Below are positions 6,558 through 60,440 of a stretch of DNA of 64,000 nt, in pieces. The position numbers and the translations under genes are program-made. The DNA lies in contig DATFDL010000776.1 in NCBI GenBank assembly GCA_035252155.1, forward strand, positions 1,392 through 65,391. Reading direction: 5' to 3'. Position 1 is the stretch's first letter, and each line of letters starts with the position of its first letter. The notes below the pieces were generated by a model. That model had not been told where the DNA came from. It ran no database searches and worked only from the letters and a program-made list of their open reading frames with translations. Source of the DNA: Pirellulales bacterium (lineage in GTDB: Bacteria > Planctomycetota > Planctomycetia > Pirellulales > JAICIG01).

Positions 6558-6690
6558 AGGGTTCAAACAAGGGTTCAGGGTTCAGGGTTCAGAACTTTCG
6601 TTCAGGGCATGCCGGTCGGTGCTAACCATGAACGTCCGCACAAAAATGCTGAACCCTGAACCCTGAACCCTCCGCGAACCCTGAACCCTT
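6558..6690. repeat. Heptamer-armed palindromic element, copy 1: (GGGTTCA)n - core - (TGAACCC)n
   Basis: AAGGGTTCAAACAAGGGTTCAGGGTTCAGGGTTCAG, a 56-nt core, then CTGAACCCTGAACCCTGAACCCTCCGCGAACCCTGAACCC. It starts right after the stop of the upstream gene and ends 19 nt before the trpD ATG. Confidence 0.85.
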
Positions 6691-6708
6691 TGTGAGCTCT
6701 GGAACGCC

Positions 6709-7701
6709 ATGCGGCCTCTCGACCGCGACCTGTCGATGGACGAGATGTCGGCCGCCATCGACGGCATCATGCGGGGCGAGTGGCCGCAAGAGGAGATCGC
6801 TTCGCTCTTATTGGCGCTGCACCACAAGGGCGAAACCGTCGATGAGATCGCCGGGGCCGCGGCCGCCCTGCGGCGGCACATGACGCCGATCCGCGGTCGC
6901 CGCAGCGGCATCGTGGACACCTGCGGGACCGGCGGCAACGCTTCGAGCCTGTTCAATATTAGCACGGCGGCCGCACTGGTCACGGCCGCGGCCGGGGTGC
7001 CCGTGGCCAAGCACGGCAATCGACGGGTGACCAGCCGGAGCGGCTCGGCCGACGTGCTAGCCGAGTTGGGCGTCGAGGTGGCAGCGGACATCGACTGCGT
7101 CACGGCTTGTCTCGACGAACTGGGCATCTGTTTTTGCTTCGCGCCGCTCTGTCACGGCGCGATGAAGCAAGTCGCCGAAGTCCGCCGGCAGTTGGGCGTG
7201 CCGACCATTTTCAACTTGTTAGGGCCGCTGACCAACCCCGCCGGCGCCGAATATCAATTGCTGGGCGTCGGCCGAGACGAGCTGCGATCGCGGCTGGCGG
7301 CCGCCTTGGCCAGGCTCGGGGGCAAACGCGCGTTGGTGGTGCATGGGTCGGACGGGCTGGGAGAAATAACCCTGGCCGGCGAAACGCACGTCACCGAAGT
7401 TCGCGACGGCGAATTGCGCGAATACACGCTGATGCCTGACGATTTCGGCCTTCGCCAAGCCGACCTCGAAGCGGCGCGTGTCGATGGGCCGGCGGCCAGC
7501 GCCGCGATTGTTCGCACCGTCTTGGCCGGCGTGGCGGGGCCGGCCCGCGAGGTGGTGCTGCTCAACGCGGCGGCGGCCCTGTGGCTGGCGGACAAGACCG
7601 ACACGCTTCCCGGCGGCGTGGGGTTGGCTGCCGAGGCCATCGACTCGGGCGCAGCCCGTGAGCTGTTGGGCCGCCTCGTGGAACGGACGAACGCGCGATG
7701 A
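6709..7701 (+). CDS. trpD: Anthranilate phosphoribosyltransferase
   Basis: 330 aa with GTGGNASSLFNISTAAA and KHGNRRVTSRSGSADVLAELG motifs. Confidence 0.9.
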   Translation: MRPLDRDLSMDEMSAAIDGIMRGEWPQEEIASLLLALHHKGETVDEIAGAAAALRRHMTPIRGRRSGIVDTCGTGGNASSLFNISTAAALVTAAAGVPVAKHGNRRVTSRSGSADVLAELGVEVAADIDCVTACLDELGICFCFAPLCHGAMKQVAEVRRQLGVPTIFNLLGPLTNPAGAEYQLLGVGRDELRSRLAAALARLGGKRALVVHGSDGLGEITLAGETHVTEVRDGELREYTLMPDDFGLRQADLEAARVDGPAASAAIVRTVLAGVAGPAREVVLLNAAAALWLADKTDTLPGGVGLAAEAIDSGAARELLGRLVERTNAR

Positions 7702-7711
7702 GGGCTCGCCG

Positions 7712-7838
7712 AGGGTTCAGGGTTCAGGGTTCAGGGTTCAGTACTTTGTTCCACCATTTATGGTCGGCGCCGACCACCAAGCCGTGAACGAAAGTTCTGA
7801 ACCCTGAACCCTGAACCCTCGCGTCCCCATGAACCCTT
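7712..7838. repeat. Heptamer-armed palindromic element, copy 2 (core inverted relative to copy 1)
   Basis: GAGGGTTCAGGGTTCAGGGTTCAGGGTTCAG, core, then CTGAACCCTGAACCCTGAACCCTC..CATGAACCC. The reverse complement of the core aligns to the copy 1 core (AACTTTCGTTCA...GGTCGG...ACAAA), roughly two thirds identical by eye. Confidence 0.85.
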
Positions 7839-7914
7839 CCGTTGCTTGACGACGGCCGCGCTCTAGCCGACAATCGCCAAGAACAAGCTTTAGCACCGTT
7901 TGGACCACGAATCT

Positions 7915-9486
7915 ATGGAATTCAAAGAAGGCCATACCGTCGGCATCGACCTGGGAACCACGTTTTCGGCCATCGCCAAGCTCGACGAGAACGGCGCGCC
8001 GGTGGCCCTGCTCAATGAAGAAGAGGAAGTCGAAACGCCCAGCCTGATCGTACTGGCGCAGAGCGGGCATGTGATTGTCGGCCCCAGCCGCACGCGGGCC
8101 GCCATGGAAGACCCAGAGCACGTCGTCGAGCGCGTCAAGCGCCACATGGGCAGCGCTGAATACAAGCGCACCTTCGACGGCCATGAGATCACGCCCGAAT
8201 TTCTCTCGGCCCTGATCCTGAAGAAGCTGCGGCAAGACGCCGAAAAACGGATCGGCCCCATCGGCAATGCCGTAATCACCGTGCCGTATTATTTCAACGA
8301 CGCCCGACGCAAGGCCACGCAAGACGCCGGCCGCATTTCGGGCATGAACGTGATCGACATCATCAATGAGCCGACCGCCGCCACGCTCACCTACGCTTGG
8401 CACCGGGGCGAGCTGGGGGTGGGCAAGTTCGAGAAGCCGCACATGGCGTTGGTCTACGACCTGGGCGGCGGCACGTTCGACGTGACCGTGGTCAAGTACA
8501 CGCCGACGCACTTTCAGGTGCTGGCCACCGACGGCGACGTGTATCTGGGCGGCATCGATTGGAACGATCGCTTGCTCAACTATGTAGCCGACGAATTCAA
8601 GAAGCGGCACGGGTCCGACCCGCGCGATTCGGCCGCCACCACCCAGGTGCTGCGCAACGATTGCGACCAGGCCAAGATCGCGCTCTCGAATCAGCCACAG
8701 GCTTCGATTGTCTGCCGGCATGAGGGAAAGAGCGCCTCGGTCACCGTCACGCGCGAGCAGTTCGAGCAGATGACCGCCGACCTGCTGCAACGCACGATCG
8801 ACACCACCGAATTGGTGATCGAACAGGCCAAGATTCAACCGCAAGACCTCGACGCGATCGTGCTGGTGGGCGGCTCGACGCTGATGCCCCGCGTGCCGCT
8901 GCTGCTGGAACAAGTGACGGGCAAAAAACCGTTCCAAGAGCTATCGCCGCACACGGCGGTGGCCCAGGGCGCCGCCATCCACGCGGCCATTCTCGAAGCT
9001 AAGTTTCGCGGCACCGGCAGCGAGTTGGCCGACACCGTGCGGCGCTATCTGAAAAACGTCAAGCAGGACGACGTCAATTCGCACAGCCTCGGCGTAGTGA
9101 TTAAAGATCCGCAAACCAAGAAACCGCGCAACCACGTGATGATCCCCCGCAACACGCGGCTGCCGGTCGAAAAGCAGCAGGTGTTCAACACCATCGAGCC
9201 CAACCAGGTGCGGGCCACCGTCCGAGTGATCGAAGGCGATGCGCCCGATCCGGCGGCCTGCTCGCTGATCGGCAATTGCAGCATCACGAACTTACCGGCA
9301 AGCTTACCCAAGGGATCGCCGGTCGAAGTGACGTATTCCTACGGCACCGATGGCCGGGTGCGCGTGCGGGCCCGCGACAAGACGGGCGGGCGCGAGGCCG
9401 CCATCGAGATCGAACGTCGCGGCGGGCTAAACGAGCAGCAGATCGACGGATACGCCAATTTGGCCCAGCAATACGTGGTGCAGTGA
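7915..9486 (+). CDS. Atypical Hsp70-family protein lacking the C-terminal helical lid
   Basis: Motifs GIDLGTTFSAIA, LVYDLGGGTFDVTVV and LVGGSTLMPRVP, plus a beta-sandwich SBD-like region. The protein ends about 523 aa in. The ATG at 7915 is preferred over the TTG at 7900. Confidence 0.85.
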   Translation: MEFKEGHTVGIDLGTTFSAIAKLDENGAPVALLNEEEEVETPSLIVLAQSGHVIVGPSRTRAAMEDPEHVVERVKRHMGSAEYKRTFDGHEITPEFLSALILKKLRQDAEKRIGPIGNAVITVPYYFNDARRKATQDAGRISGMNVIDIINEPTAATLTYAWHRGELGVGKFEKPHMALVYDLGGGTFDVTVVKYTPTHFQVLATDGDVYLGGIDWNDRLLNYVADEFKKRHGSDPRDSAATTQVLRNDCDQAKIALSNQPQASIVCRHEGKSASVTVTREQFEQMTADLLQRTIDTTELVIEQAKIQPQDLDAIVLVGGSTLMPRVPLLLEQVTGKKPFQELSPHTAVAQGAAIHAAILEAKFRGTGSELADTVRRYLKNVKQDDVNSHSLGVVIKDPQTKKPRNHVMIPRNTRLPVEKQQVFNTIEPNQVRATVRVIEGDAPDPAACSLIGNCSITNLPASLPKGSPVEVTYSYGTDGRVRVRARDKTGGREAAIEIERRGGLNEQQIDGYANLAQQYVVQ

Positions 9487-10514
9487 GCGCGCAACCCGAC
9501 GTCTACCGCGATTGGCTGGAGATCAGCGAGACGGCGCGTCCGCTGAACCACTACCAGCTCTTGAAACTGAAGCTGTTCGAGGACGACGCCAACGTCATCC
9601 GCGGCAGCTACCGCAAGTTGAACGCGCACGTGCGTAAATACGCCGCCGGCGAATTCGGCCCACGCTCGCAGGAGCTGCTCAATGAGCTCTGCCAGGCGAT
9701 GCTTTGCCTGACCGACGCGGTGCGCAAGGCCGAATACGACGCCTCACTGGGGCGGGCGGCGGCGCCCGTGGCCGGCAAGGCCAAAAACTTCGAGGAGCTG
9801 CTGGTGGCTCGCAAGGTGCTTACCTCGGAACAGCTCGACAAGGCGAGGCGGTTTTCGCGGACAATCGGCGTGGAGGTGCGCGACGCTATATTCCAGCAGC
9901 GGCTGGCGCCGGCCGACCAGGTGATGCAGGTCTACGCCGACTCGATCGGCCTGCCGTTCATCAACCTGGAGGACGTCGACATCGACGAAGGGCTGGTACC
10001 CAAGATGCCCGCCGTGACCGCCCGGCAGCAGTCGTGTGTTCCGTTGATGGCAGTCGACGGCCGGGTATTGGTGATGGCGCCTCATCTGTTGCCGCCCGAG
10101 ATCGAAGACCTGCTGCGGCTGCGGTTTGGCGTGCCGGTGCGGATGGTGCTCTGCACGCCGGCCGATGTCAACCAGGTGATCGCCAAGCATTTTCCCAAGG
10201 AAGCGGCGGCGGCCGAAATGGCGGCCGGGCCGGCCAAACGGGCGGCGAAGGCCACGCCAGAGACGAAGGAAAAAGCGGCGGCGCAGCCCGCAGCCCAGGC
10301 GGACCTGACCTACGAAGAAAAGAAACAGGCCAAGAAACAGCGACTGATTAATTGCTTTTTGGTGGCCAACATTTGCGTGATCGTTTTCATGATCGGGCTG
10401 GGAACTGCCACGCAGTACCTGGTAAGGCACCCGTGGCTAAGTACGCTGGTGGGCATCGTCTTTTGGGCAGGCGTATTCGGCGCCACTTGGGTCGTCACCG
10501 AGCTGAAGAAGTGA
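9483..10514 (+). CDS. Membrane-anchored J-like (HPD-less) protein with T2SS-E N-terminal (MshEN-type) domain
   Basis: GTG at 9483 overlaps the Hsp70 stop (GTGA). The N-terminus aligns to J-domain helices (YQLLKL..IRGSYRKLNAHVRKY..LCLTDAVRKAEYDASLG), with HVR in place of HPD. The middle part reads LLVARKVLTSEQLDKARRF..IGLPFINLEDVDIDEGLVPKMP..VPLMAVDGRVLVMAP, which is T2SSE_N-like. There are two C-terminal TM helices. Confidence 0.6.
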   Translation: MSAQPDVYRDWLEISETARPLNHYQLLKLKLFEDDANVIRGSYRKLNAHVRKYAAGEFGPRSQELLNELCQAMLCLTDAVRKAEYDASLGRAAAPVAGKAKNFEELLVARKVLTSEQLDKARRFSRTIGVEVRDAIFQQRLAPADQVMQVYADSIGLPFINLEDVDIDEGLVPKMPAVTARQQSCVPLMAVDGRVLVMAPHLLPPEIEDLLRLRFGVPVRMVLCTPADVNQVIAKHFPKEAAAAEMAAGPAKRAAKATPETKEKAAAQPAAQADLTYEEKKQAKKQRLINCFLVANICVIVFMIGLGTATQYLVRHPWLSTLVGIVFWAGVFGATWVVTELKK

Positions 10515-10542
10515 CGGCGACGCCGAACCGCTCGTTGCGTAT

Positions 10543-10645
10543 CTGTAGGGTGGGCCGAGCGAAGCGAATCCCACCGTTGCCTCATCATGAAGCATCAGCG
10601 TGGCGCAAGCGAAAGGTGGGGCTCGCAAGCTCGTCCCACCCTACG
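10543..10645. repeat. REPIN-like doublet (class E: GTAGGGTGGG..CCCACC)
   Basis: CTGTAGGGTGGGCCGAGCGAAGCGAATCCCACC ... GGTGGGGCTCGCAAGCTCGTCCCACCCTACG. Each arm is a GTAG head plus a hairpin. The element sits between convergent genes, and the right arm contains the stop of the receiver gene. Confidence 0.75.
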
Positions 10646-11021
10646 CCTGTTCTCGCAAGAACCTGGCCAGCTTTTCGTGCGTGCCGGGGTCGTCGAGCTG
10701 GGCCTTGCCAAAGCCTGGTTCGGCTCCCGCGGCAATCGCCTTCTGTTGATGCTCGGCAAAATTGGTGACGAGCATCACCGGCATGGACGACAACTGAGGA
10801 TCTGTCTTCATGGCCTTGATGATCGCCAAGCCATCGTCGCCATCGGCGTCGAGCTTGCGATTGACCAGCACCAGGTCGAAGTTGCCATTGCGCAAAGCCG
10901 TCAGCGCGTCGTCACGTTGATGCGCTCGCACCACACGGGCGCCGAATTGGCCTTCGACCAACCGGCGAATGGAACCGTGGTCGAGATTGCACTGGCCGAC
11001 GTCGAGAACCAGTTTGGGCAT
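10641..11021 (-). CDS. Stand-alone receiver-like domain protein with Asn at the phospho-acceptor position
   Basis: 126 aa from ATG 11021. CheY-like pattern KLVLDVGQ..FDLVLVNRKLDADGDDG..PVMLVTN..GFGKA. By alignment to the DLVLLD consensus, the D57-equivalent reads N. Confidence 0.65.
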   Translation of the reverse strand: MPKLVLDVGQCNLDHGSIRRLVEGQFGARVVRAHQRDDALTALRNGNFDLVLVNRKLDADGDDGLAIIKAMKTDPQLSSMPVMLVTNFAEHQQKAIAAGAEPGFGKAQLDDPGTHEKLARFLREQA

Positions 11022-11028
11022 GGCAGCA

Positions 11029-11058
11029 GGGTTCAGGGTTCGGGGCTGTGGGTTCGGG
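11029..11058. repeat. Single G-rich arm of the GGGTTCA family
   Basis: GGGTTCAGGGTTCGGGGCTGTGGGTTCGGG starts 8 nt upstream of the receiver gene start. On the sense strand it reads (GAACCC)n. Confidence 0.7.
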
Positions 11059-11087
11059 ACGCGCAAGCGTATTGCGTCATGGCGCTT

Positions 11088-11145
11088 GGAGGATGGCCTT
11101 CCAGGCCGTCGCCGCCGGGGTGGACGGCCTGGAAGGCCATCCTCC
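11088..11145. repeat. Near-perfect 23-bp-stem palindrome
   Basis: GGAGGATGGCCTTCCAGGCCGTC - 12 nt loop - GACGGCCTGGAAGGCCATCCTCC. Confidence 0.8.
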
Positions 11146-11251
11146 GCGTTCGACAATCGAAATCCTTGCACTAACCATGCCGGGGCATCGCCAAGGCTCT
11201 GCCCAGCCACCGGCAGTAAGCTTATGCAACGGCCGGCCACAAGGGCCGGGG

Positions 11252-13183
11252 CTATCGGCCGACTAGGGTTTCATCCGATGTTTCGGCTGCGGCTTGCTCT
11301 CCGGTATCCATCGGCACGATCGCAAACAGGTGCGACTTGTTCGAGACGTACAACACATTATTGGCCACCACAGGCGTGCTGTAGACCGAGTTGCCCATGT
11401 CGATCTGGTGCAGCGGCTGATGCTCGCCGTTGTCGTCTTTCTTCATCGCCACGTCCGGATCGGACGAGAGGCCGAAGATCGACAGCTTGCCTTCTGCGTC
11501 GCCGACATACACCTTGTCGCCGACGATCATGGCCGAGCCCCAGTTTTCGGCGAACAGGTCGTGCGTCCAATAGACCTTGCCATTCTTGGCGTCGACGCAG
11601 TGAAACAAGCCGCTGAAGTCGGGAATAAACAGCAGCCCGTCTTTGATGGCCACGGTGCCACAGGTGCGGTGCATTTTTTCTTCGAAGTCGGCGATGTCGC
11701 CGTCGCCGTTCACGTCGTATTCGGTGTAGTGCCATACCGCGGCTGAATTGGGATTGTCGATCGCCACTTCGCCGTCTTCTTCGATCACGGCTTGCAGCCG
11801 CCGCTTGGGCAGCACGTGCTTGCGGTCGTCGACCTTTACCGCCAACTCGCTGCTGACGTCGCCGCGCTTGGTGGGATCGATGCACCAGAGATGCCCGTTG
11901 CCCTCGCCGTGCTCAGGGTCTTCGCCCACCGCGATATAGACCAGATTTTCATAGATCACCGGCGTGCCGATGATGTGGTTCCGCGTGCTGCGGCCTTGGA
12001 CGCTATATTTGGCGGTTTTCGGATTGCAGTCGAACTCCCAGAGCAGTTCGGGCTTGCCGTCGTCGGTGGCTTCGCCGCGGAAGCTGCGCAACCAGCCGTC
12101 GCCGCCGCCGAAGAGCACTTGCGGCACGCCGTCGATCACCGCGTAAGCGGGCGACGACCATTGGCCGTGCAAGATGTTCTCGCCCGGCGAGTTATCTTGC
12201 CAGAGCACCTTGCCGGTGTTTTTGTCGAGGCAGAGAAAGCTGGGGGCCTCTGGCGAAGGGATTTCCGTGTGTCCTTCGTCGACGCCGTTCGAGGTGTTGA
12301 CAAACAGCAGGTCGCCGGCCGACGTGACCGAGCAACTGCACATATTGTGCTGCGAGACCTTCAACTGGCGCATCATGTCGAGATACCAGATGACGTCGGC
12401 CTCGTCTTTGTTGGTGCTCTGCTCGGCCTGAAACGGTCCGTCGTTCTCGTCGTCCAAAAACCCTTCGGTGTCGAGGCAGGCGACTTCGCCGCGGCTGGTG
12501 ACGAACCACAGCCGGTCGCCCTCGACCAGCGGCGCACAGCAGATGCCTTGCAACGGCCAATCGTGTACCCGGCCGGTGGGCAGCTTTTCGCTCGAATGCT
12601 GCCAGAGAAAATGCCCATCGGCTTCGTCGAAGCAGAGCAAACAGCCCAGGTCGACATCGGCCGGGTAACGCTTCAGATAACCGGCGCCGTTATTGGTGCC
12701 GACAAACACCTTGCCGTCGGCCACCACGGGGTTGCCGTAGCTTTGGCTGCCCAATCGCGCGACCCATTTGATGTTATGCGAGGTCTCACTCTGCCACTCG
12801 CTGGTGTCGCTGATTTCGCCAGGCGACCACTCGGTGGGAATATTCTTGCCCACCGGCACATTGTTGCGAATCGGCGAGCCGCCCCATTGGTTCCACTCGC
12901 GGTTCGGCTCGGCAGTTTCGTCATCCGCGGGTTTGCTCGCGGTATGAGCCGCCTGCTGGCCGGCGGCTTCCGACGCGACGTCGTTCTCTGCGGCGGCATC
13001 GTTGGCTACGCTGCTATCGTCGGCTGGCGCGGAGTCGTTGTCCGTCGCCTTGGACGCGACCACGTGGGCGTCGGTGCTATTCGCCGTAGTGTTTTGGGCC
13101 GTCGGCGGCGTCGATTTCGAGCAACCTATTTCTAGGGTGGCCAAGAGAACGACTGGCAGAACAAGAGCAAGATACTTTTTCAT
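11252..13183 (-). CDS. PQQ-like beta-propeller repeat protein, probable secreted or lipid-anchored
   Basis: MKKYLALVLPVVLLATLEIGCSKS signal, an acidic low-complexity linker, then WNQWGGSPIRNN and propeller blades. Start trimmed to ATG 13183. Confidence 0.8.
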   Translation of the reverse strand: MKKYLALVLPVVLLATLEIGCSKSTPPTAQNTTANSTDAHVVASKATDNDSAPADDSSVANDAAAENDVASEAAGQQAAHTASKPADDETAEPNREWNQWGGSPIRNNVPVGKNIPTEWSPGEISDTSEWQSETSHNIKWVARLGSQSYGNPVVADGKVFVGTNNGAGYLKRYPADVDLGCLLCFDEADGHFLWQHSSEKLPTGRVHDWPLQGICCAPLVEGDRLWFVTSRGEVACLDTEGFLDDENDGPFQAEQSTNKDEADVIWYLDMMRQLKVSQHNMCSCSVTSAGDLLFVNTSNGVDEGHTEIPSPEAPSFLCLDKNTGKVLWQDNSPGENILHGQWSSPAYAVIDGVPQVLFGGGDGWLRSFRGEATDDGKPELLWEFDCNPKTAKYSVQGRSTRNHIIGTPVIYENLVYIAVGEDPEHGEGNGHLWCIDPTKRGDVSSELAVKVDDRKHVLPKRRLQAVIEEDGEVAIDNPNSAAVWHYTEYDVNGDGDIADFEEKMHRTCGTVAIKDGLLFIPDFSGLFHCVDAKNGKVYWTHDLFAENWGSAMIVGDKVYVGDAEGKLSIFGLSSDPDVAMKKDDNGEHQPLHQIDMGNSVYSTPVVANNVLYVSNKSHLFAIVPMDTGEQAAAETSDETLVGR

Positions 13184-13216
13184 GTTGACTTTTGCACTTT
13201 GCATTTTGACTTTCCC

Positions 13217-15808
13217 CTACCGGTTCTCCGTAACCGAAAGATTATCGATAAAAATCTCGGCATCGTCGGCCTTGCCAAAGAGGCCGGGGCTGCCGATGAC
13301 GTTGGGCGCCTCGTCGACCGCCTCGATCGACCAATCTTCTGGCTCGTCGTCGCCGCGCGGCCAGACCTTGCCTCTCAGCACCGCCTTACCCTCTTCGACT
13401 GACGCCTGAAACTTCATCGTGTACCAGGTATCGTAGTTCCACTTGAACGGCACTGTCGTCGAGAAACGATTCGGCTGGCCCGTCCACGAACGAACCTGTA
13501 ACTGCTGTTTAATGCCCATGAGGACCAGCGTATATCGCTGGGCGATCAGGCCGATATCCGGCTGCTTGCCGTCGCGGATCGAGCCGCGTACGTCGGCCTG
13601 AATCGTGTAGTCGTGATAGTCCGGTTGCCCCATCCAGCACTGGCTGCGAGTGCCCAAGGGAATGGTGGTAATCTTGACCATCACACCGTTGCCTTCACTT
13701 TCCAGCTTGCCGCGCGACACGTCAAGGCCCACGTCGCCGTCTTCGCCCGTCCACTTGTAGTCGGCGATGATCCCCGCCTCGCGCACCAGCTTTAGGGCCG
13801 GCTCTAATTCTTTCTTGGCCCCGCCCAGCGTCTTGACCGACTTGCTCCCGTCAAGTTCGAGGTATCGCAAGAAGTTGGTCCACAGTCGGCGCGGGGTGCG
13901 GTCGTTGAAACTGGCCTTGTCCTGACCGGAGTTAAGAAACGTCGTCGTCAGATAGATGTAAAGTTGGCCGGCCCGCTCGTCTTGCTGCTTGAGCGATTCG
14001 AGCAGATCGAAATCGAGGGCGATGTGCCGATAGCGGGCGCCCACCCAGGTGATCGGCACCCGTTGGTTGGCAAAGTCGAATTTCCAAGGCAGCGGCGGCA
14101 CGATGCGAATGCGGGCCTTGCCCGTCAGATCGCCCACCTTGGCGGTCACCGTGCAGCCCACGTGCTCGTCTCCGCGGTCGGCGGTGAACGTTCCCTTGTC
14201 GTCGATCTTGCCGCCGCCATCGACTTCAAAGGCCACGTCGTCTGCCTTGGCCTCTTGAATGAACCGCCCGCGAGCGTCGTACAACCGCGCGGTATATTGC
14301 ACCTGCTCGCCCGGAGCGATCAGCGATTCGACCGGCACGACCTGCACGTGGGCCGGCTGCTGGTCTTCGCCAGCGGCTTCTTCCTGCGGCGGCTCGGGCC
14401 GCTGGTCGACGCCGGTCTTGGAGTCGGCATTGCCCAGGCAATAGAGCGTTTCGGTCGTGGGCAGATAAATCCGGCCATGCGAGACGATCGGCGAGCCATG
14501 TACTTCCTGGCCTTGACCGAAGCGGATCTTATCGATGATTTTCACGCCTTTTTCCGTGGGTTCGAGCACGTGCCAGCCGCTGGTGGTGCAGGCGTAAATC
14601 TTTCCGTCGGCATAGAGCAAGCTGGCTCGGGCAATGGTGCCGATGAGCCGCTGCTTGGCGATCTGCTTGCCCGTCTTGGTGTCGAACACATACAACGGCC
14701 CACCGTCATCGAGAGCGTAAAGTCGGCCATCGACCACTACCGGCGAGCTTTTGCCGATCATGATCTGTCGCTTCGACCAGATTTTGCCGCTTTTGGTGAT
14801 GTCGATGCTCTTGGCCGCGGGATCGAGATTGGCGGTGCCGTCGATGGCGCAGATGCCGCCCTGCGTGTTGTCGTTGATGTTTTCTTCGCTGTGGCTCATA
14901 TAGACGGCGTCGCCCTCAACCACCGGCGTCGTATTCAGCCCCCGCTGCGAAATATAGCAGCTCCACAGCGGCCGGCCCGTGCGCGGCTGAAAGGCCCACA
15001 CGCCGCCGTCGCCCGAGCCAAAAATCATCGCCGCTTGCCCGCCAAGCACCGTGAGCACCGGCGTGCTGTAGGTGGTATCGGTAGGCCGCAGTCGCGTGCC
15101 GTTGAACCAGCGGGGCACGCCGGTCCGCTTGTCGAACGCCACAAAGCGATGGGCGGGCTGGGCCATCTCGCCCCAGCCGATCACCACGGCGTTGATAATC
15201 ACCAGGTCTTCAAACACGACGGGCACATTGGTCCGCCCGCCGTAGGTGCTTAAAAAACCATATTCTTCGCTCAGCGAGTGCGACCAGATGGTTTCACCGG
15301 TGTCCCCGTCGAGACATTGAAAGTAATCGCACACGCCCATCGCATAGATGCGGCCCGTGGCGGGATCGCCCGTGCAGCACGACCAGCCCAGCCGCTCTTT
15401 GGGCACGTCGGAGAGAAAGACATTAAAACGGTTTTCCCAGAGGATCTCGCCGGTGTTGGCGTCGGCGCAAACCACTTTCTCTTGTTCGCGGGGAGTGCCC
15501 GGCTCGTGGCTGCAGATGGTGTAGAGCTTGCCCCGCATGACGATGGGCGTCGAGCGGCTGCCCAGGGCATCGCTTTTCCAGATAACGTTGTCGCCCTCTT
15601 TGCTCCAATGGTCGATCAGGCCGGTCTCGCGCGAGATGCCATTTTGCTCCGGCCCGCGCCAATTGGGCCAATCCAAGGGATCGATCTCCGCGGCACCTTC
15701 CGATTTATCTTGGGCCACCACCGGTCGGACCAAAGCGACAACCGGCGCCACGGCCAGCATCCAACATCCATACGGAACGAAAACCAAAGCCGCGCGAAAG
15801 AGACTCAT
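13217..15808 (-). CDS. PQQ-like beta-propeller protein with C-terminal LamG/concanavalin-like domain
   Basis: DWPNWRGPEQNGISRETG plus blades. The C-terminus DYTIQADVRG...YTLVLMG...WYTMKFQASV...AEIFIDNLSV looks jelly-roll-like. The ATG at 15808 is preferred over the TTG at 15823. Confidence 0.75.
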   Translation of the reverse strand: MSLFRAALVFVPYGCWMLAVAPVVALVRPVVAQDKSEGAAEIDPLDWPNWRGPEQNGISRETGLIDHWSKEGDNVIWKSDALGSRSTPIVMRGKLYTICSHEPGTPREQEKVVCADANTGEILWENRFNVFLSDVPKERLGWSCCTGDPATGRIYAMGVCDYFQCLDGDTGETIWSHSLSEEYGFLSTYGGRTNVPVVFEDLVIINAVVIGWGEMAQPAHRFVAFDKRTGVPRWFNGTRLRPTDTTYSTPVLTVLGGQAAMIFGSGDGGVWAFQPRTGRPLWSCYISQRGLNTTPVVEGDAVYMSHSEENINDNTQGGICAIDGTANLDPAAKSIDITKSGKIWSKRQIMIGKSSPVVVDGRLYALDDGGPLYVFDTKTGKQIAKQRLIGTIARASLLYADGKIYACTTSGWHVLEPTEKGVKIIDKIRFGQGQEVHGSPIVSHGRIYLPTTETLYCLGNADSKTGVDQRPEPPQEEAAGEDQQPAHVQVVPVESLIAPGEQVQYTARLYDARGRFIQEAKADDVAFEVDGGGKIDDKGTFTADRGDEHVGCTVTAKVGDLTGKARIRIVPPLPWKFDFANQRVPITWVGARYRHIALDFDLLESLKQQDERAGQLYIYLTTTFLNSGQDKASFNDRTPRRLWTNFLRYLELDGSKSVKTLGGAKKELEPALKLVREAGIIADYKWTGEDGDVGLDVSRGKLESEGNGVMVKITTIPLGTRSQCWMGQPDYHDYTIQADVRGSIRDGKQPDIGLIAQRYTLVLMGIKQQLQVRSWTGQPNRFSTTVPFKWNYDTWYTMKFQASVEEGKAVLRGKVWPRGDDEPEDWSIEAVDEAPNVIGSPGLFGKADDAEIFIDNLSVTENR

Positions 15809-15912
15809 AAGAGGTATTTTCAATAGGAGGCGGGACCGGCGAACCGGTTTTGGCGGGCAAAATACGTGGCTCTAGGATACGCTCCGGCCCGCCGGTTCGG
15901 CAAGCCGCCAGC

Positions 15913-16050
15913 GCGGGAGCGAGGGAGCAAGGGAGCGAGGGAGCAGGGGAGAAACGGAGCAACGCGGACAAGAAGCGCGTGACAAGAAACCACGTCCTGC
16001 GTCTCCTCTGCTCCCGTGCTCCCCCTCTCCCATGCTCCGTTTTCGCTTGC
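15913..16050. repeat. Octamer-armed element: (GGGAGCRA)n - core - inverted (GCTCCC)-type array
   Basis: GGGAGCGAGGGAGCAAGGGAGCGAGGGAGCAGGGGAG..., a 41-nt core, then CTCCTCTGCTCCCGTGCTCCCCCTCTCCCATGCTCC. The complementarity is imperfect. It lies in a divergent intergenic region. Confidence 0.75.
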
Positions 16051-16118
16051 TACCCGCCCCGCGCCAGCATACAACAATCGGGTCGGGCCGCGTGCCGCAC
16101 TTTTAGGAATTTCGCCAC

Positions 16119-17366
16119 ATGGTTGCCTCAAAACCCCTCACCAAAGATAACGTCGGCGCCGCCTTGAACCGCGCCTTGGATGCCGCTCAGGGCCTGCTGC
16201 GGCTCACGCCCACCTGGGTGCCGCGCAGCTTTCTGCATCCGGGCAAACGCATCAAGCTCGCCCCCGGCGATTGGTATGCCTTTGGCGCGCACCGCGGCGG
16301 CATCGACGAACGCTGGTTCGCCAGCACCACCGAGGCCGCCAACGAAAACCGCACGCCCGACGAAGGCCTGAGCTACGTGGCCTTCGAGGGCCAGCGGTTT
16401 ACCCTCCGCGACGCCGTGGCCGAGGCCGGCCCGCGCCTGATCGGCAAGGCCATGCACGAGCAATACAAGCGCTGGCCGGTCTACTCGAAGTTTTTCGACA
16501 ACATGGGGCCGATCCCGCACCACATGCACCAGCGGTTCGAAGACGCCAAGCTGGTCGGCCAGGAAGGCAAGCCTGAAAGCTATTATTTTCCGCCGCAACT
16601 GAACAACGTCGACAACAACTTCGCCTACACCTTCATGGGCCTCGAGCCGGGCACGACCAAAGAGCAGGTCCGCCAGTGCCTGGCCGACTGGCACAAAGGC
16701 GACAACGGCATTCTCGATCTTTCGCGAGCGTACCGGCTGAAGCGAGGCACCGGCTGGCTGATCCCGCCCGGCGTGCTGCACGCGCCCGGTTCGCTCTGCA
16801 CCTATGAGCCGCAATGGGGCAGCGATGTGTTCGGCATGTTTCAATCGCTGGTCGAGGGTCGCGAAGTGCCTTGGTCGCTGTTGGTCAAAGACATGCCGAA
16901 GGAAAAACACCGCGATCTCGACTTTATCGTCGGCCAGCTCGATTGGGAAAAAAACGTCGACACGCATTTCAAAGAGCACAACTACCTGGAGCCGATCGTC
17001 GACGCCAGTTGCTCGGGCAGCGGCGCCACCGACCGCTGGATCGTCTATGGCACGGTCGACGGCCGACAGCTCTTCAGCGCCAAAGAGTTAACTCTCGAGC
17101 CCGGCGCCAAGTACACGCTGAAAGACGCCGGCGCCAGCGGCTGGATTACCGTGCAAGGCCGCGGACGGATGGGTAAGCTGAATCTCCAGACGCCCGCCAT
17201 GATTCACTTTGGCGAAGAGACCGAAGACGAAGTTTTTATCGCGCACGAAGCGGCCACCGCGGGCGTGGAGGTCGAAAACACCGGCAGCGAGCCGCTAGTC
17301 GGCCTGCGTTACTTTGGCCCCGACGTGCATCGCAGCCTGCCGAAGGTGGGCGATTACCGCAAATAA
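16119..17366 (+). CDS. Cupin-type sugar isomerase-like protein (possibly class I mannose-6-phosphate isomerase-like)
   Basis: 415 aa with His-rich PIPHHMHQRF and WLIPPGVLHAPGS, consistent with a metal-binding cupin. The family assignment is from recall only. Confidence 0.35.
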   Translation: MVASKPLTKDNVGAALNRALDAAQGLLRLTPTWVPRSFLHPGKRIKLAPGDWYAFGAHRGGIDERWFASTTEAANENRTPDEGLSYVAFEGQRFTLRDAVAEAGPRLIGKAMHEQYKRWPVYSKFFDNMGPIPHHMHQRFEDAKLVGQEGKPESYYFPPQLNNVDNNFAYTFMGLEPGTTKEQVRQCLADWHKGDNGILDLSRAYRLKRGTGWLIPPGVLHAPGSLCTYEPQWGSDVFGMFQSLVEGREVPWSLLVKDMPKEKHRDLDFIVGQLDWEKNVDTHFKEHNYLEPIVDASCSGSGATDRWIVYGTVDGRQLFSAKELTLEPGAKYTLKDAGASGWITVQGRGRMGKLNLQTPAMIHFGEETEDEVFIAHEAATAGVEVENTGSEPLVGLRYFGPDVHRSLPKVGDYRK

Positions 17367-17392
17367 TTCCCACTCAGCGCGTAGCTGACTTC

Positions 17393-18169
17393 GTGAGAAG
17401 TCAGGCAGCCCCCGCCATGACAAACGCAGCCGGTACGAGCGAAAAGCGAATCCAGATTGTATCGGTCGAGCGCGAGGATTATGAGAAGATCGCTGCCGCC
17501 TTCCAGGGGTTCGATCTCGTTTATCGCCGGCGCATTGACGAGTTGGAAGTACCAGCCGTCATGCACGGCGTCTCTTGGCAGCAGTATGAAGCTTTACTCG
17601 ACGCACTGCCCGAGCGCTATCTACGTCAAGCTTATTATCGAGGCACATTAGAGCTGCGCGATAAGACCATGTGGCAGCAGCACACCAAGTGCCTCATCGA
17701 TCAGTTCATTGGGGCGGCGGCACTTGAATTTGAAATCCGCATAGCCTCTCTCGGGTCGACGACCCGCACCAAGCAAGCGCTGGAGTGCGGCATTGAGCCC
17801 GACGAATCATATTACTTCGCTCAGGCGCACGCGGTGCCTTGGGGTCGCGACATCGGTCCAGAGGATGGACCGCCGCCGGATTTGGTCGTCGAAACCGATT
17901 TTGACCATGCCGAGTTGGACCGGCTCATCGTGCTTCGGCTGCTGGAAGTGCCCGAGGTTTGGAAATACGATGGAACCCGGTTGACGTTCCACCGGTTAGC
18001 TGCGAACAAGCAATACGAGTTGTGTGACCGAAGTTTGTGGTTTCCGTTTCTCGGGCCGGAAGACATTCAGCCATTTTTAGAAGACTTGAGCACCACCGAC
18101 GACAATGCTCTCACGCGAGCTTTCTTGAAGCACGCCAAAACGCGCCACCGACAGGCATCGCGAAATTAA
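17393..18169 (+). CDS. Uma2-family (DUF820) putative endonuclease
   Basis: IEPDESYYF...PPPDLVVETDF...VPEVWKYD pattern typical of Uma2. The start may instead be the ATG at 17417 rather than the GTG at 17393. Confidence 0.65.
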   Translation: MRSQAAPAMTNAAGTSEKRIQIVSVEREDYEKIAAAFQGFDLVYRRRIDELEVPAVMHGVSWQQYEALLDALPERYLRQAYYRGTLELRDKTMWQQHTKCLIDQFIGAAALEFEIRIASLGSTTRTKQALECGIEPDESYYFAQAHAVPWGRDIGPEDGPPPDLVVETDFDHAELDRLIVLRLLEVPEVWKYDGTRLTFHRLAANKQYELCDRSLWFPFLGPEDIQPFLEDLSTTDDNALTRAFLKHAKTRHRQASRN

Positions 18170-18205
18170 CGACTCGCACCGTCATCGCACCGGCCGGTAG
18201 GCCGT

Positions 18206-18237
18206 CCTGAACCCTGAACCCTGAACCCTGAACCCTT
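18206..18237. repeat. Single C-rich arm (CTGAACC)x4 of the GGGTTCA family
   Basis: CCTGAACCCTGAACCCTGAACCCTGAACCCTT ends 2 nt before the ATG at 18240. Confidence 0.8.
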
Positions 18238-18239
18238 TG

Positions 18240-19289
<1,050 letters not shown>

Positions 19290-19303
19290 AGGTCGTTCCC
19301 GCC

Positions 19304-20104
19304 TCACGGCACCTGCGCCATCGTCTCGCGAATGGCTTGGGCCTGGGTCACGATGGCCAACCCGAGTTGCTTGCGGAATTCACCGCTTTCATAGGTAAAT
19401 TCAAACCGCTGGTTGAAGAAGTGCTGCCCCTGCACGAGGCCCAGAATCTTCAAGCTGGCGCTCTCGCCGGTTTCGCGCTTCCAATAGACCGGTCCGCCGC
19501 TGTCGCCCTCAAAGGTGTTGTAGTCGACCAAAAAGGTCGGCTCTTTTTCCAACGGCAGCAAGGGATAGCTGGCGATGCATCCCAAGCGCACTACAGGAAA
19601 CGACGCCTGGTTCGGTTCGAACACCGTGGCGTGCGGAAAGCCGACGCAGCGAACCAGGTCGCCTGGCTCGACGCCGCGCAGGTCATCGGCTGTGGCCAGC
19701 AGGTCGGCGGTCAGCCGTGGCAGCTCGATGCCGGCGGGCGGCTCGATCGGCATGGCGGCCACGTCTTGCTTGGCATGGCGCTGCCACAGCGGCTTTCCTT
19801 CGCTGCGGATTTTCAACGGGGCGGGCGCCTTGGCAAATTCGCCCTCGCCGGTTTTCCGACGATAGTTGACCGTCATCTCGTCGCCGTCCGACATCTCCAG
19901 CACGTGGGCGGCCGTGATCAGAATATATTGGGGCGTTGCTTCGTCGCCGGCCCGCGGACGCGATAGCACAAATCCCGTGGCCGTCGATTTGAGGTTCGAC
20001 AATCGGACAGTGGCCATCACTAGATCGGTCTGTGGCCCAGCCGTTTGGCCGCGCGCCGGTGATATCGGCAGTAGGCAGAGGGCGACGCAGAGCAGGGTTC
20101 GCAT
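19304..20104 (-). CDS. Secreted trypsin-like (S1) serine protease
   Basis: Signal peptide, ILITAAHVLE (catalytic His context) and FEGDSGGPVYW (catalytic Ser context). Confidence 0.7.
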   Translation of the reverse strand: MRTLLCVALCLLPISPARGQTAGPQTDLVMATVRLSNLKSTATGFVLSRPRAGDEATPQYILITAAHVLEMSDGDEMTVNYRRKTGEGEFAKAPAPLKIRSEGKPLWQRHAKQDVAAMPIEPPAGIELPRLTADLLATADDLRGVEPGDLVRCVGFPHATVFEPNQASFPVVRLGCIASYPLLPLEKEPTFLVDYNTFEGDSGGPVYWKRETGESASLKILGLVQGQHFFNQRFEFTYESGEFRKQLGLAIVTQAQAIRETMAQVP

Positions 20105-20268
20105 AGGTCACGAGTTGGAAGTTGGAAGTTTGAAGTTTTCAGAGCTGAAAAAGCCATTGTAACTCGCTTCATAGCCTGCCGCGAACCGGTTGCCAACCGC
20201 CGCGACGGATGGATAATCAGTCGGGGCGATTTGCCAGCAACGCGATCTCTATACGGCTCGCAATACCG

Positions 20269-32487: not shown

Positions 32488-32726
32488 AATGCGGAATGCG
32501 GCGTGCGGAATGCGGAATGGTTTTTTAGTTCCGGCGTGTTTTGCGGTTCCGTGCAGTTCGAATGTTCGTGTACGCATTCGCAGCATATCAGAGTCTATCG
32601 GCATCGCAATGCTCCCCTTGTAAAATTAGTGGTCACAAGCCCCGCCTCGGGGCGACGCGACCTCTCTCGGCATCCGGCATTTCAATCATTCCGCATTCCG
32701 CGCTCCACATTCCGCATTTCAATCAC
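32488..32726. repeat. Octamer-armed element: (GCGGAATG)n - about 157-nt AT-richer core - (CATTCCGC)n
   Basis: AATGCGGAATGCGGCGTGCGGAATGCGGAATGG ... CATTCCGCATTCCGCGCTCCACATTCCGCATT. The right arm overlaps the mnmA stop. The left arm ends 30 nt before the floA start. Confidence 0.8.
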
Positions 32727-37466: not shown

Positions 37467-37470
37467 CGAA

Positions 37471-37509
37471 GGGGCTGGGGCCTAGAGGCTGGGGGCTAGG
37501 GACTAGGCG
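37471..37509. repeat. G-rich tandem array (GGGGCT/CTAGGG units), single arm
   Basis: GGGGCTGGGGCCTAGAGGCTGGGGGCTAGGGACTAGG begins 5 nt upstream of the ABC ATPase start. It is related in unit sequence to the arms at 60350..60440. Confidence 0.65.
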
Positions 37510-38580: not shown

Positions 38581-38687
38581 ACCCGAACGGTATGGCAGTA
38601 GCAATCGTGGGCGGTAGTCTAGGAAGAACTTGCGGACTAGGCAACGTCAGTCTTGCCGACCTAACGGGAGGTATCCCCCACCGGCTT

Positions 38688-38777
38688 CTGTAGAGAACGG
38701 ACTTCCTGCCGGTGGGTGAATGGCGGCGCGAGGCCAAATCGTAATTCGCTCAACGGCTCGGAGTCCGTTCCCTACAG
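38688..38777. repeat. REPIN-like doublet, class A variant (GTAGAGAACGGAC..GTCCGTTC)
   Basis: CTGTAGAGAACGGACTTCCTGCCGGTGGG ... CGGCTCGGAGTCCGTTCCCTACAG. Same 90-bp length and same CTGTAG/CTACAG termini as class A. Confidence 0.8.
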
Positions 38778-39032
38778 ACCTGAAAGTCGCTCCGTCCGCT
38801 ACCACTCGACCGTGGCGTCCGCCATCGCTCGTCGAGCCGGCCATATTCACCAAACTCGCGCTGGCGCCGATTCGATAGCACCTATTGGGTTGCCGCGCCC
38901 CGATTCGAAGGAAGGCTCTGCCGCGGTCATAACTCAAAGCCACGATTGCCATTGACGACTAACGGGGCCGGGCACTATCGTGCCGCCGCTCGCGGGAGTC
39001 CCGACACCCTGATTCGCAGCCCGGCCTTTTTT

Positions 39033-45506: not shown

Positions 45507-45597
45507 CTGTAGGGAACGCCCTCTGTGGCGTTCCGCAAACTACGGGTGGACGTCGCGCCGCCCCTCCACGGAACGCCACGGAGGGCGTTCCCTACAG
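45507..45597. repeat. REPIN-like doublet, class A, copy 3
   Basis: CTGTAGGGAACGCCCTCTGTGGCGTTCCG ... CGGAACGCCACGGAGGGCGTTCCCTACAG. Confidence 0.9.
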
Positions 45598-49355: not shown

Positions 49356-49435
49356 TGTAGCTCCGACACTCCGTGGCGGAGGTTCCGGTCGCCAAGGGCG
49401 ACCGCGATCCCCGTCACGGAGTGCCGGGGCTACTG
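49356..49435. repeat. REPIN-like doublet, class C (GTAGCTCCGACACTCCGTGGCGGAG)
   Basis: TGTAGCTCCGACACTCCGTGGCGGAGG - GGTCGCCAAGGGCGACC - CGTCACGGAGTGCCGGGGCTAC. Confidence 0.8.
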
Positions 49436-56016: not shown

Positions 56017-56058
56017 AGATGTCGGCGGCATGACGCAACTATGAATGTCGAAAAGGCA

Positions 56059-58908: not shown

Positions 58909-59115
58909 ATGAACATTGAAGTGGCAAGCGCCGATCCTGAAATCCTCGCCGACGCGCTGGCGATCATCGAAGCTCTCACGTCAGGGAGCCCGCCCGATCC
59001 AATGGTCATCCGGCGCGTTCGGGCACGTTCAGAAGTAATCTGCGAGCGCATCCTGCGAGAGCATGGACTTCTCGACATCGCTGTACCGGCGATTCGTGAA
59101 TTCCGAGATCGATGA
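58909..59115 (+). CDS. Small antitoxin-like protein (68 aa)
   Basis: It lies immediately upstream of the PIN remnant with an ATGA overlap. No family recognised. Confidence 0.35.
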   Translation: MNIEVASADPEILADALAIIEALTSGSPPDPMVIRRVRARSEVICERILREHGLLDIAVPAIREFRDR

Positions 59116-59321
59116 AGTACGTTTTGGATTCGCCAAAATTTTTTTCACATCTTTCCCTGATGCCGGATGCGATCCAATTGTCGTCTCAGGTCCGGATCGG
59201 CGTCTACGATTGTCTCTACGTGGCCTTGGCCGAACGAGAACAGTGCCGCGTTGCCACGGCCGATCATCGATTACTGCATTCGTTCCCCGCGCATACGATT
59301 GCTCTCGCCTCAATCCCGTAG
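59112..59321 (+). pseudogene. Internally truncated PIN (VapC-like) remnant, 69 aa
   Basis: It starts MKYVLDS (typical VapC N-terminus) and ends ...VYDCLYVALAEREQCRVATADHRLL (typical VapC C-terminal half). About 60 residues expected between them are absent. Confidence 0.5.
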
Positions 59322-59350
59322 GTGTCGCTCTCAGAGTGCCACGGGCTGAC

Positions 59351-60313
59351 TTACTTCACGCCACAGGCCCGTTGCGCGCGGAGCAAGACCTCGCCGGCTT
59401 TTTTTCGGGCGCGGGCGGCGCCGTCGGCCAAAATGGCCCGCACTTGGTCGGGCTGCGCGGCCAACTCGGCCCGTCTGCGGCGCGGCTCGGCCAAGAACCG
59501 CTCGGCCACGTCGGCCAGGGCCTGCTTGATCTCGCCATAGCCGAAACCGCCGCGGCGATACAAGGCCGCCATTTCGGTCCGCTCGGCGTCGCCGGCGAAG
59601 AGCGAATAAAGCTGAAACAGATGATCGCCCTCGGGCTCCTTGGGCTGATCCATCGGACGCGAATCGGTGACGATCCGCATGATCTTTTTGCGCAGGGCCT
59701 TGGCTTCCTCGAACAACTCCAGCGTGTTGTTGTAGCTCTTCGACATTTTTTCACCGTCGGTGCCCGGCACCTTGGCGGCGGCCGGCAGCACCTTGCCTTT
59801 GGGCATGACGAAGGTCTCGCCAAACTGGTGATTGAAGCTGCCGGCCAGGTCGCGACAGACCTCGATGTGCTGAAGTTGATCTTCACCCACCGGCACGATG
59901 TCGGCGTCGTAGATCAGAATGTCGGCGGCCATGAGCACGGGATACATAAACAGGCCGGCGTCGGCCGCCAGCCCTTTGGCCTTTTTGTCTTTGTAGGCGT
60001 GGCACCGTTCGAGCAGGCCCAGGGGCGCGCCGGTCATCAACAGCCAGCACAGCTCGCTGGCTTCGGGCACATCCGACTGCACAAACAGCGTGGCCCGACG
60101 CGGATCGAGCCCCAAGGCAAGCAGGTCCAGCGCGGCTTCGTGCGTGTATTCGGCCAGCAGCTTCGGATCGCGAACCGTGGTCAACGCATGCAGATTGGCG
60201 ATGAAGTAATACGCCTCGTTATCGTTCTGCAGGTCAATGTATTGCCGGATGGCGCCGAAATAGTTTCCCCAATGGAAACGGCCCGTCGGTTGGATGCCGG
60301 AGAGAACTCTCAT
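59351..60313 (-). CDS. trpS: Tryptophan--tRNA ligase
   Basis: SGIQPTGRFHWGNYFGAI and KMSKS motifs. Start trimmed to ATG 60313; the track ORF begins at a TTG inside the repeat. Confidence 0.9.
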   Translation of the reverse strand: MRVLSGIQPTGRFHWGNYFGAIRQYIDLQNDNEAYYFIANLHALTTVRDPKLLAEYTHEAALDLLALGLDPRRATLFVQSDVPEASELCWLLMTGAPLGLLERCHAYKDKKAKGLAADAGLFMYPVLMAADILIYDADIVPVGEDQLQHIEVCRDLAGSFNHQFGETFVMPKGKVLPAAAKVPGTDGEKMSKSYNNTLELFEEAKALRKKIMRIVTDSRPMDQPKEPEGDHLFQLYSLFAGDAERTEMAALYRRGGFGYGEIKQALADVAERFLAEPRRRRAELAAQPDQVRAILADGAARARKKAGEVLLRAQRACGVK

Positions 60314-60318
60314 AGAGG

Positions 60319-60440
60319 TCGGGGGTCGGGGGTCAGGATTCAGGGAAGAGGCTGGGGACTCGGGGCTCGGGGATAGGGATTTGTTCTCCAACCCCAAGCC
60401 TTGGTTCCCTAGACCCTAGCCCCGAGTCCCTAGCCCCTCT
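60319..60440. repeat. G-rich/C-rich armed palindromic element (GGGGCT/GGGACT units)
   Basis: GGGGGTCGGGGGTCAGG...GGCTGGGGACTCGGGGCTCGGGGATAGGGA - loop - TCCCTAGACCCTAGCCCCGAGTCCCTAGCCCC. It covers the last ~35 codons of pyrD and the trpS leader. Confidence 0.75.

Follow-up and report, generated by a model that had tools for sequence, protein, structure and literature searches.

The 64,000-nucleotide stretch of contig DATFDL010000776.1 of a Pirellulales metagenome-assembled genome analysed here (hereafter the window) carries, at the boundaries of its genes, tandem arrays of 7- or 8-nt units that are G-rich on one strand and C-rich on the other and that occur either singly or as two inverted arms around a core. 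The locus raises the question of what sets the orientation of such arrays relative to the adjacent genes and what kind of element they represent. An initial annotation of the window had proposed that they share one polarity, a G arm followed by a C arm before a start codon. Comparison of the window with a larger set of loci shows a different rule, namely that every array turns the 5' end of its G-rich strand toward whichever gene is closest, regardless of the direction of that gene, with the consequence that a G-rich array follows a stop codon and a C-rich array precedes a start codon.

Orientation of the arrays at gene boundaries

Regarding the reality of the arrays, Tandem Repeats Finder (TRF) rows with a period of 7-8 and a score of at least 40 were taken as the array set of the window, with 100 dinucleotide-preserving shuffles as the control. 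Twelve such rows were detected in the 64-kb window, whereas the shuffles gave 0.03 on average and never more than 1. TRF also recovered the arrays at all sites of the initial annotation, within a few nucleotides of the positions given there, and together with the strand asymmetry and the location at gene boundaries these counts bear out its view that the elements are non-random. All arrays of the set lie between genes or overlap the end of an open reading frame (ORF); the intergenic placement that had been proposed thus applies to the arrays generally, with the exception of the element at 60319, which lies within the 3' end of the pyrD ORF (stop 60333) and is partly translated. The same elements are present in two independent assemblies (L118 and L119), and the window arrays are therefore not assembly artefacts.

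No site of opposite polarity is present in the window, as had been claimed, but for the five inverted array pairs this is a tautology. Because an inverted repeat built of a G arm and a C arm is symmetrical, either strand shows G before C, and these five sites therefore give no test of gene polarity. The G-then-C order of a pair is the handedness of the element itself, and polarity relative to genes is tested by single arms only, which among the sites listed initially were those at 11029, 18206 and 37471. With the array at 20113 and the outer array next to trpS there are five single arms in the window, all of which have a C-rich sense strand and end 3-33 nt before a start codon. The handedness of the pairs exists because each arm obeys the orientation rule with respect to its own flanking gene.

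A comparison of the two orientations had been set beforehand as the test of the proposed bias, and it was run on about 0.9 Mb of sequence from many phyla, using TRF arrays of period 5-10 with |GC skew| of at least 0.35. Genes were called with a purpose-written crude codon model, which reproduces independent gene calls on the window, and an array was assigned to a gene boundary when no more than 50 nt separated it from that boundary while the opposite one was over 50 nt away. The orientations are unequal over all loci: 49 arrays near start codons are C-sense and 1 is G-sense, while near stop codons 75 are G-sense and 8 are C-sense. Units outside the GGGTTCA family, which form an independent sample, give ratios of 20:0 near starts and 39:4 near stops. 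The array is nearer to its conforming flank in 140 of 179 co-directional, 20 of 23 convergent and 26 of 34 divergent spacers. Adjacent arrays of opposite skew follow the order G then C in 80 cases and C then G in 7 (all loci), and for complementary pairs these numbers are 32 and 0 (all loci). Furthermore, about 150 kb of Pirellulales contigs chosen without regard to arrays, some spacers of which are orthologous to window sites, contain about 16 arrays that conform and none that clearly violates the rule.

Several simple causes of this bias were considered and rejected. Arm-arm hairpin pairing is not the general basis of the polarity, since the rule is kept by non-complementary arms in L120 (6271-6303 and 6648-6701), where (GTGAGTG)n after a stop codon has a sequence unrelated to that of (GAATCCT)n ahead of the following start codon and both are unstructured, and since in L128, which keeps both arrays, the fold is not significant (z = +0.43). 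Nor can the avoidance of G-runs ahead of start codons be the sole cause, given that convergent spacers, where no start codon is present, obey the rule as well (20/23). An artefact of the gene caller, hiding G-sense arrays within N-terminal extensions of called ORFs, accounts for at most 2-4 cases. Directional growth of the arrays toward the gene, leaving a trail of decayed units, is not supported either: in-phase unit matches show no difference between the two flanks (p = 0.72 for all arrays, p = 0.18 for arrays not flush with the gene), TRF extension past the perfect run shows no significant bias (32 vs 23, p = 0.28), and no excess of unit 4-mers was found in the array flanks on the G-3' side.

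Elements of the window, their structure and their turnover

Flanking genes were mapped by Pfam and by the gene calls of a near-identical contig. Pfam supports trpD, Hsp70, the receiver gene, PQQ, TIM-barrel, FloA, the ABC ATPase and TrpS, while the label "cupin" given initially to the ORF at 16119 has no Pfam support and the PQQ start placed at 15808 is put at 15760 by the gene caller. All arrays listed initially exist, but the conforming array at 20113-20137 and a weak region at 61393-61478 had been overlooked, and the unit at 32488 is of 7 nt (GCGGAAT) and not of 8 nt. The elements are as follows.

6558..6592 (TRF 6570-6592), + strand: G arm of element 1, GGGTTCA units (AGGGTTC in TRF), 1 nt past the stop of a 162-aa ORF (6069-6557)
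6593..6648, no strand assigned: core of element 1, paralogous to the core of element 2 in opposite orientation
6649..6690 (TRF 6649-6689), + strand: C arm of element 1, CTGAACC units, ending 18 nt before the trpD ATG (6709)
7712..7841, no strand assigned: element 2, comprising G arm 7712-7741, palindromic core 7742-7796, C arm 7797-7819 and a degenerate tail to 7841
11027..11058, - strand: single array, C-rich on the sense (-) strand, 5-7 nt upstream of the response-regulator ATG (11021); other flank the PQQ_2 stop (11252)
15910..16045, no strand assigned: two-arm element of 8-nt units, GGGAGCRA G arm 15910-15962, TGCTCCC C arm 16009-16045 (TRF 16009-16038)
18206..18236, + strand: single C-rich array, CCTGAAC x4.4, ending 3 nt before the TIM-barrel ATG (18240); other flank the Uma2-like stop (18169)
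20113..20137, - strand: single array, AGTTGGA x3.6 on the + strand, C-sense, no G3 run, 8 nt upstream of the ATG of a trypsin-like peptidase (20104)
32488..32718, no strand assigned: two-arm element of the 7-nt unit GCGGAAT; on the - strand the order is mnmA stop 32723, G arm 32687-32718, 167-nt core, C arm 32488-32519, floA ATG 32458
37470..37507, - strand: single array, AGGGGCT-type on the + strand, C-sense, 3-33 nt upstream of the ABC-ATPase start (TTG 37466 or the caller's 37436)
60317..60346, - strand: outer single array, GGTCGGG / TCAGGAT on the + strand, C-sense, 3 nt upstream of the trpS ATG (60313)
60347..60438, no strand assigned: hairpin pair, arms 60347-60379 and 60406-60438 (TRF 60317-60379, including the outer array, and 60407-60438), 85% complementary, within the final ~33 codons of pyrD (stop 60333)
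61393..61478, no strand assigned: weak region, G-rich then C-rich, GGAGACGC-type, 50-135 nt upstream of the pyrD ATG (61343)

Element 2 starts 10 nt after the trpD stop (7701) and has the hsp70 ATG (7915) as its other flank. The element at 15910..16045 is located between a divergent PQQ gene (start 15760-15823) and ORF 16119, and the array at 37470..37507 lies 51 nt after the stop of a methyltransferase gene on the - strand (37559). The two arms of the element at 32488..32718 both contain a variant third unit, in register.

Regarding structure, the hairpins proposed between the arms are well supported, as RNA folds of the five paired elements are far better than those of shuffled sequences (z = -8.0, -8.6, -5.5, -4.5 and -4.45, the last four values belonging to the elements at 7712, 15910, 60347 and 32488), and the cores, too, are imperfectly palindromic. 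The single C arms at 18206 and 11029 have minimum free energies (MFE) of 0 to -2.4 kcal/mol, that at 18206 being wholly unstructured (MFE 0), the single arm at 37471 folds weakly (-8.3 kcal/mol, z = -1.4), and the region 61393..61478 folds no better than shuffles (z = -0.13). No U-tract follows the hairpins, and the C arms are not succeeded by T-rich sequence. None of the elements within 6000-20500 was called when that interval was scanned for intrinsic terminators, and scans for canonical terminators or promoters inside the elements remained at chance level. The only supported promoter site is a sigma-70-like TTGACG-N17-GACAAT (7846-7874) upstream of hsp70, which is conserved in L123 and lies just downstream of the element at 7712. 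The leader role suggested initially for the C arm is therefore probably not applicable to this element, where the promoter is placed between the C arm and the Hsp70 start. Rfam gave 0 matches and ARAGORN 0 genes, on which grounds a known RNA family or a tRNA-derived origin was rejected. Apart from the arrays, a perfect palindrome occupies 11088-11145, in the interval that separates the PQQ_2 stop from the array at 11029; its stem measures 23 bp (GGAGGATGGCCTTCCAGGCCGTC ... GACGGCCTGGAAGGCCATCCTCC) and it has no U-tract.

Comparison with relatives reveals how the arrays change. Over 17 kb shared with L118, a strain 99.7% identical, the sole indel is one 7-nt CTGAACC unit in the C arm at 6649, and the arrays behave as simple-sequence repeats that change by slippage. 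All 42 substitutions in the same comparison fall into two patches, 8349-8397 inside hsp70 and 16640-16970 inside ORF 16119, which suggests recombination tracts and not scattered mutation. In L123, whose trpD product has 90% amino acid identity, the spacer upstream of trpD keeps the layout of stop codon, G arm, core, C arm and ATG, with AGAGGTC/GACCTCT as the unit of both arms and a fold z of -5.6. The element at 7712 is absent from L123, leaving a clean difference of about 140 nt directly after the trpD stop, and no target-site duplication was found at the junctions in the comparison of the window with L123. In more distant relatives the element upstream of trpD is missing, or units of the GGGTT type overlap the trpD stop.

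At the pyrD-trpS junction a C-sense array is flush with a conserved trpS ATG in four lineages (PyrD 83-100% identical), and in L126, L127 and L128 its position is conserved while the units differ (CCCGACC, CTGAACC x3 and CYGAATC x4). The region 61393..61478 is present in L127 and absent in L126. The receiver-gene orthologue in L121 has no array and carries the Shine-Dalgarno (SD)-like GAGGAA in its place; an SD-like motif (GGAG, GAGG or AGGA at -20 to -4) was detected for 11 of the 47 confidently called window genes, and the genome appears to be SD-poor, with little use of Shine-Dalgarno sequences. These comparisons show dynamics that correspond to slippage, to unit turnover changing both arms together and to gain or loss of whole elements. 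Regarding phase-variable simple-sequence repeats, in which an altered number of copies turns a surface or virulence gene on or off by way of reading frame or promoter spacing, copy number was seen to differ between strains, yet the neighbours of the arrays are housekeeping genes (trpD, trpS, pyrD, floA, hsp70).

The pyrD ORF (- strand) reads through the repeat element at 60333-60440, and its last ~33 residues (ARDSGLGS...SLFPES) are repeat-encoded. PyrD homologues are conserved only over the first ~300 residues and have total lengths of 285-408, a spread that fits arrays repeatedly overrunning the stop codon. Encroachment by the repeats appears to give rise to spurious C-terminal tails of variable length, pyrD being the example in the window.

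Relation to described repeats and occurrence across phyla

The initial annotation did not recognise the elements as a described class, but G-rich heptamer repeats with matching properties have been reported, with units GGGAATC in Xanthomonas and GGGGAYT in Nostoc (Rehm et al., 2015, PLoS One; PMC4692102). About 90% of those repeats are intergenic, 70 of 186 occur in convergent inverted pairs, and the nearer ORF is almost always on the 5' side of the G strand, whatever the orientation of the ORF (PMC4692102). Within 50 bp of an ORF, the G strand is the coding strand downstream of stops and the non-coding strand upstream of ORFs; circular dichroism showed G-quadruplex (G4) and i-motif formation, competition between hairpin and G4 was discussed, and no function was assigned (PMC4692102).

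The features shared with the window elements are a tandem 7-nt unit with a G-tract, about 3-6 copies, variable copy number, a location that is about 90% intergenic and convergent inverted pairs. Intergenic location, convergent inverted pairs and orientation toward the gene are all found in the window. A 7-nt unit with a tract of three to four G is present in GGGTTCA (6570, 7712, 11027 and 18206) and in the GGGGCTA-type units (37470 and 60350), while it is absent from GCGGAAT (32488), AGTTGGA (20113) and the 8-nt unit at 15910. None of the units matches GGGNATC or GGGGAYT, those found here being GGGTTCA, GGGAGCRA, GGGGCTA and GCGGAAT. The window elements thus differ in having GGGTTCA and other units, including 8-nt and G3-less ones, in a planctomycete host, and in that some elements are read through as C-terminal tails; no preference for four units was seen in a sample biased by its retrieval with a 3-unit probe. 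Judged by their sequence features, the window elements are of the kind described in 2015, with GGGTTCA in Planctomycetota as an additional member; the literature search found no description for Planctomycetota nor for the unit GGGTTCA.

Knowledge of heptamer repeats in the spacers of bacteria goes back to the work on cyanobacterial short tandemly repeated repetitive (STRR) sequences. Arrays of the heptamer TAACTGA abut start codons in Beggiatoaceae (MacGregor, 2015; PMC4679880), as do heptamer arrays upstream of recF and recO in Nostoc (preprint; 10.1101/2022.06.06.494920), and later papers on Xanthomonas used repeats of the G-rich kind as variable-number tandem repeat markers without assigning a function to them. 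STRR, Beggiatoaceae and Nostoc recF/recO arrays share with the window elements that tandem spacer heptamers are often a few nucleotides from a start codon, with no canonical SD sequence adjacent and a regulatory role suspected; however, their units are A/T-rich and mostly in direct arrays, and neither a G/C orientation rule nor paired arms have been reported for them.

Repetitive extragenic palindromic (REP), BIME and REPIN elements are likewise extragenic and hairpin-forming, occur as inverted doublets of fixed handedness and as singlets, lack target-site duplications and are often found directly after stops. REP sequences differ in being a single imperfect palindrome of 20-40 nt with a GTAG or CGTC head, linked to RAYT transposases and not tandem, while the arms here are tandem heptamers without a GTAG or CGTC head. 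A separate REP-like family is present in the window, with a 27-nt unit (GGAACGCCACGGAGGGCGTTCCCTACA), a GTAG-type head and three REPIN-like inverted doublets at 33949-34036, 38491-38579 and 45508-45596 (6 matches vs 0 expected); weaker copies were detected at 38687-38778 and 49357-49433, and a further copy lies inside the pyrD-trpS spacer of L127 (3290-3320). Intrinsic terminators share with the paired elements a GC-rich stem-loop just after the stop that is possibly bidirectional, whereas the elements here have no U-tract, have stems of 20-35 bp and loops of 30-170 nt, and in some cases are inside probable operons. Foldback-type miniature inverted-repeat transposable elements (MITEs) also consist of arms of short tandem units around a variable core and vary in presence between relatives; in contrast to them, the elements here have no target-site duplication and no conserved multi-copy core, and single as well as non-complementary arms obey the positional rule.

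Regarding distribution, species-representative genomes were scanned for (GGGTTCA)3 and at least 117 stretches were found. The matches listed include Acidobacteriota, Planctomycetota, Lentisphaerota/Verrucomicrobiota, Gemmatimonadota, Chloroflexota, several Proteobacteria and others, and close pairs among the matches listed have the order G then C in 18 cases and the reverse in 0. Arrays of (GGGTTCA)n are also present in L054 (a metagenome-assembled genome of Promethearchaeota), L015, L087 and L110 (Dialister) and L064 (Fusicatenibacter), where either genuine occurrence or binning contamination is possible. Many short-read contigs start or end within (GGGTTCA)n (L029, L064, L067, L079, L014 and L119); arrays of this type break short-read and metagenome assemblies, the contigs of which end in them.

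Possible origin and role of the elements

As the best explanation we propose slippage-driven, self-perpetuating repeat DNA with an orientation filtered by selection at the RNA level, which we infer with a probability of about 0.5, the functional part of this statement being held with lower confidence than the whole. The comparisons above show that these hypervariable arrays arise and turn over in spacers by slippage, and many of them take the form of an imperfect long palindrome (G arm, core, C arm) reaching from one gene boundary to the next. By the orientation rule, a transcript leaving a gene carries a G-rich repeat and one entering a gene a C-rich repeat. The C-rich, G-poor strand may serve as a structure-free leader beside the start codon in an SD-poor genome, where G-runs would not be tolerated. 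Where both arms are transcribed, a REP-like stem-loop would form directly after the stop codon and could stabilise or delimit the upstream transcript.

A number of observations weigh against this explanation. The orientation rule is equally strong at starts and stops and independent of gene direction, and this symmetry makes one cause at the level of DNA or transcription more economical than two separate selections at the RNA level. The hairpins are without U-tracts, and the elements of L045, L026 and L036 fill spacers between co-directional, probably co-transcribed genes, so that a terminator role cannot be general. The C arms at 7712 and 15913 are probably upstream of promoters and not in a leader. 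The cross-phylum census, in addition, depends on gene calls from the crude codon model, and up to 2-4 violators of the rule may be inside called ORFs.

Among the alternatives, a mobile foldback element of the MITE or REPIN type, in which a transposase copies the two-armed unit and single arms are decayed copies, is unlikely. It would account for the cores of the elements at 6558 and 7712, which are homologous in opposite orientation (40 of 56 positions identical, local score 40 vs 12.4 +/- 2.1 for shuffles), for the clean presence or absence of ~140 nt at 7712 relative to L123, directly after the trpD stop, for the occurrence of the GGGTTCA unit in many phyla and for a subterminal 10-mer shared by two pairs of one Gemmatimonadaceae genome. 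However, the junctions at 7712 lack a target-site duplication, cores are unrelated between genomes and in two of the three other genomes that have two pairs each, and neither metagenome contigs nor any other locus contains the 20-mer across an array/core junction (GGGTTCAGAACTTTCGTTCA), so that a classical MITE family is not supported. Many different units are present in one genome, non-complementary arm pairs follow the same rule and no candidate transposase was identified. The two copies flanking trpD (6558 and 7712) share an origin, for which local duplication or gene conversion is the simpler reading.

A directional transcription gate would give a single cause for the same rule at starts and stops and in three types of spacer, and is the sole model considered that does so. 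According to this model, a polymerase leaving a gene makes G-rich RNA from a C-rich template, which could give an R-loop, a hybrid G4 or a pause, and stops, while a polymerase entering a gene makes C-rich RNA and passes; exit would cover both sense read-through and antisense transcription, and a paired element would be a bidirectional insulator. The position of arrays within a few nucleotides of gene boundaries agrees with such a gate. We nevertheless regard it as improbable: it is purely inferential, elements fill tiny spacers in probable operons, where read-through is needed, weakly G-rich units such as AAGTCTG and GAAGAAT still conform, and no bacterial precedent was found in the literature searched.

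The emphasis of the initial annotation was on G4 structures, and both it and Rehm et al. (2015) favoured a switch in which the G strand forms a G4 and the C strand an i-motif, as DNA or as RNA, regulating the adjacent gene in its transcription or translation, in competition with the arm-arm hairpin. Several G arms do fit the G4 consensus (matches at 7713-7736, 11029-11058, 15915-15949 and 60354-60378), all eight canonical G4 motifs of the 64-kb window lie inside these arrays, and related repeats form G4 and i-motifs in vitro (PMC4692102). However, the arms at 6559 and 37471 miss the consensus, as had been noted, and both architecture and orientation persist in units without a G3 run, namely GCGGAAT and AGTTGGA in the window, AGAGGTC in the trpD spacer of L123, GTGAGTG in L120 and GAAGAAT. 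The rule is as strong outside the GGGTTCA family as within it. Perfect runs show no peak at the four G-tracts of the consensus, with 24, 51, 49 and 23 runs of two, three, four and five tracts in a sample biased by retrieval with a 3-unit probe, which limits the comparison. A G4 or i-motif switch is accordingly quite improbable as a general explanation, and G4 potential would be incidental to some units and not the conserved feature.

A platform for a single-stranded RNA- or DNA-binding protein in heptamer register (S1, Csp or CsrA-like, as proposed for TAACTGA, or another factor), controlling translation start or promoter access, is very unlikely, since many unrelated units per genome and a unit that changes between close relatives at one spacer argue against sequence-specific recognition and since the rule holds equally next to stop codons, even though the arrays abut start codons at the usual SD position and similar proposals exist for Beggiatoaceae and for Nostoc recF/recO. 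As a universal cause, loading of Rho is unlikely because Nostoc has the same polarity and cyanobacteria are not known to have Rho.

Regarding its hosts, the class occurs in Planctomycetota and, by the census, is also present in Acidobacteriota, Verrucomicrobiota/Lentisphaerota, Gemmatimonadota, Chloroflexota and several Proteobacteria. It is doubtful, though conceivable, that the orientation rule is a general law for intergenic short-unit arrays across phyla, valid for any unit and irrespective of G4 capability, of complementarity and of whether the boundary is a start or a stop. If such a law were true, it would point to one conserved directional process at gene boundaries, for example a polymerase-exit gate or a strand-asymmetric generation of repeats, and copy-number slippage would then be an evolvable tuning knob. 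The independence of the rule from G4-capable units and from arm pairing shifts attention from the G4 to a cause that is related to gene boundaries and dependent on direction.

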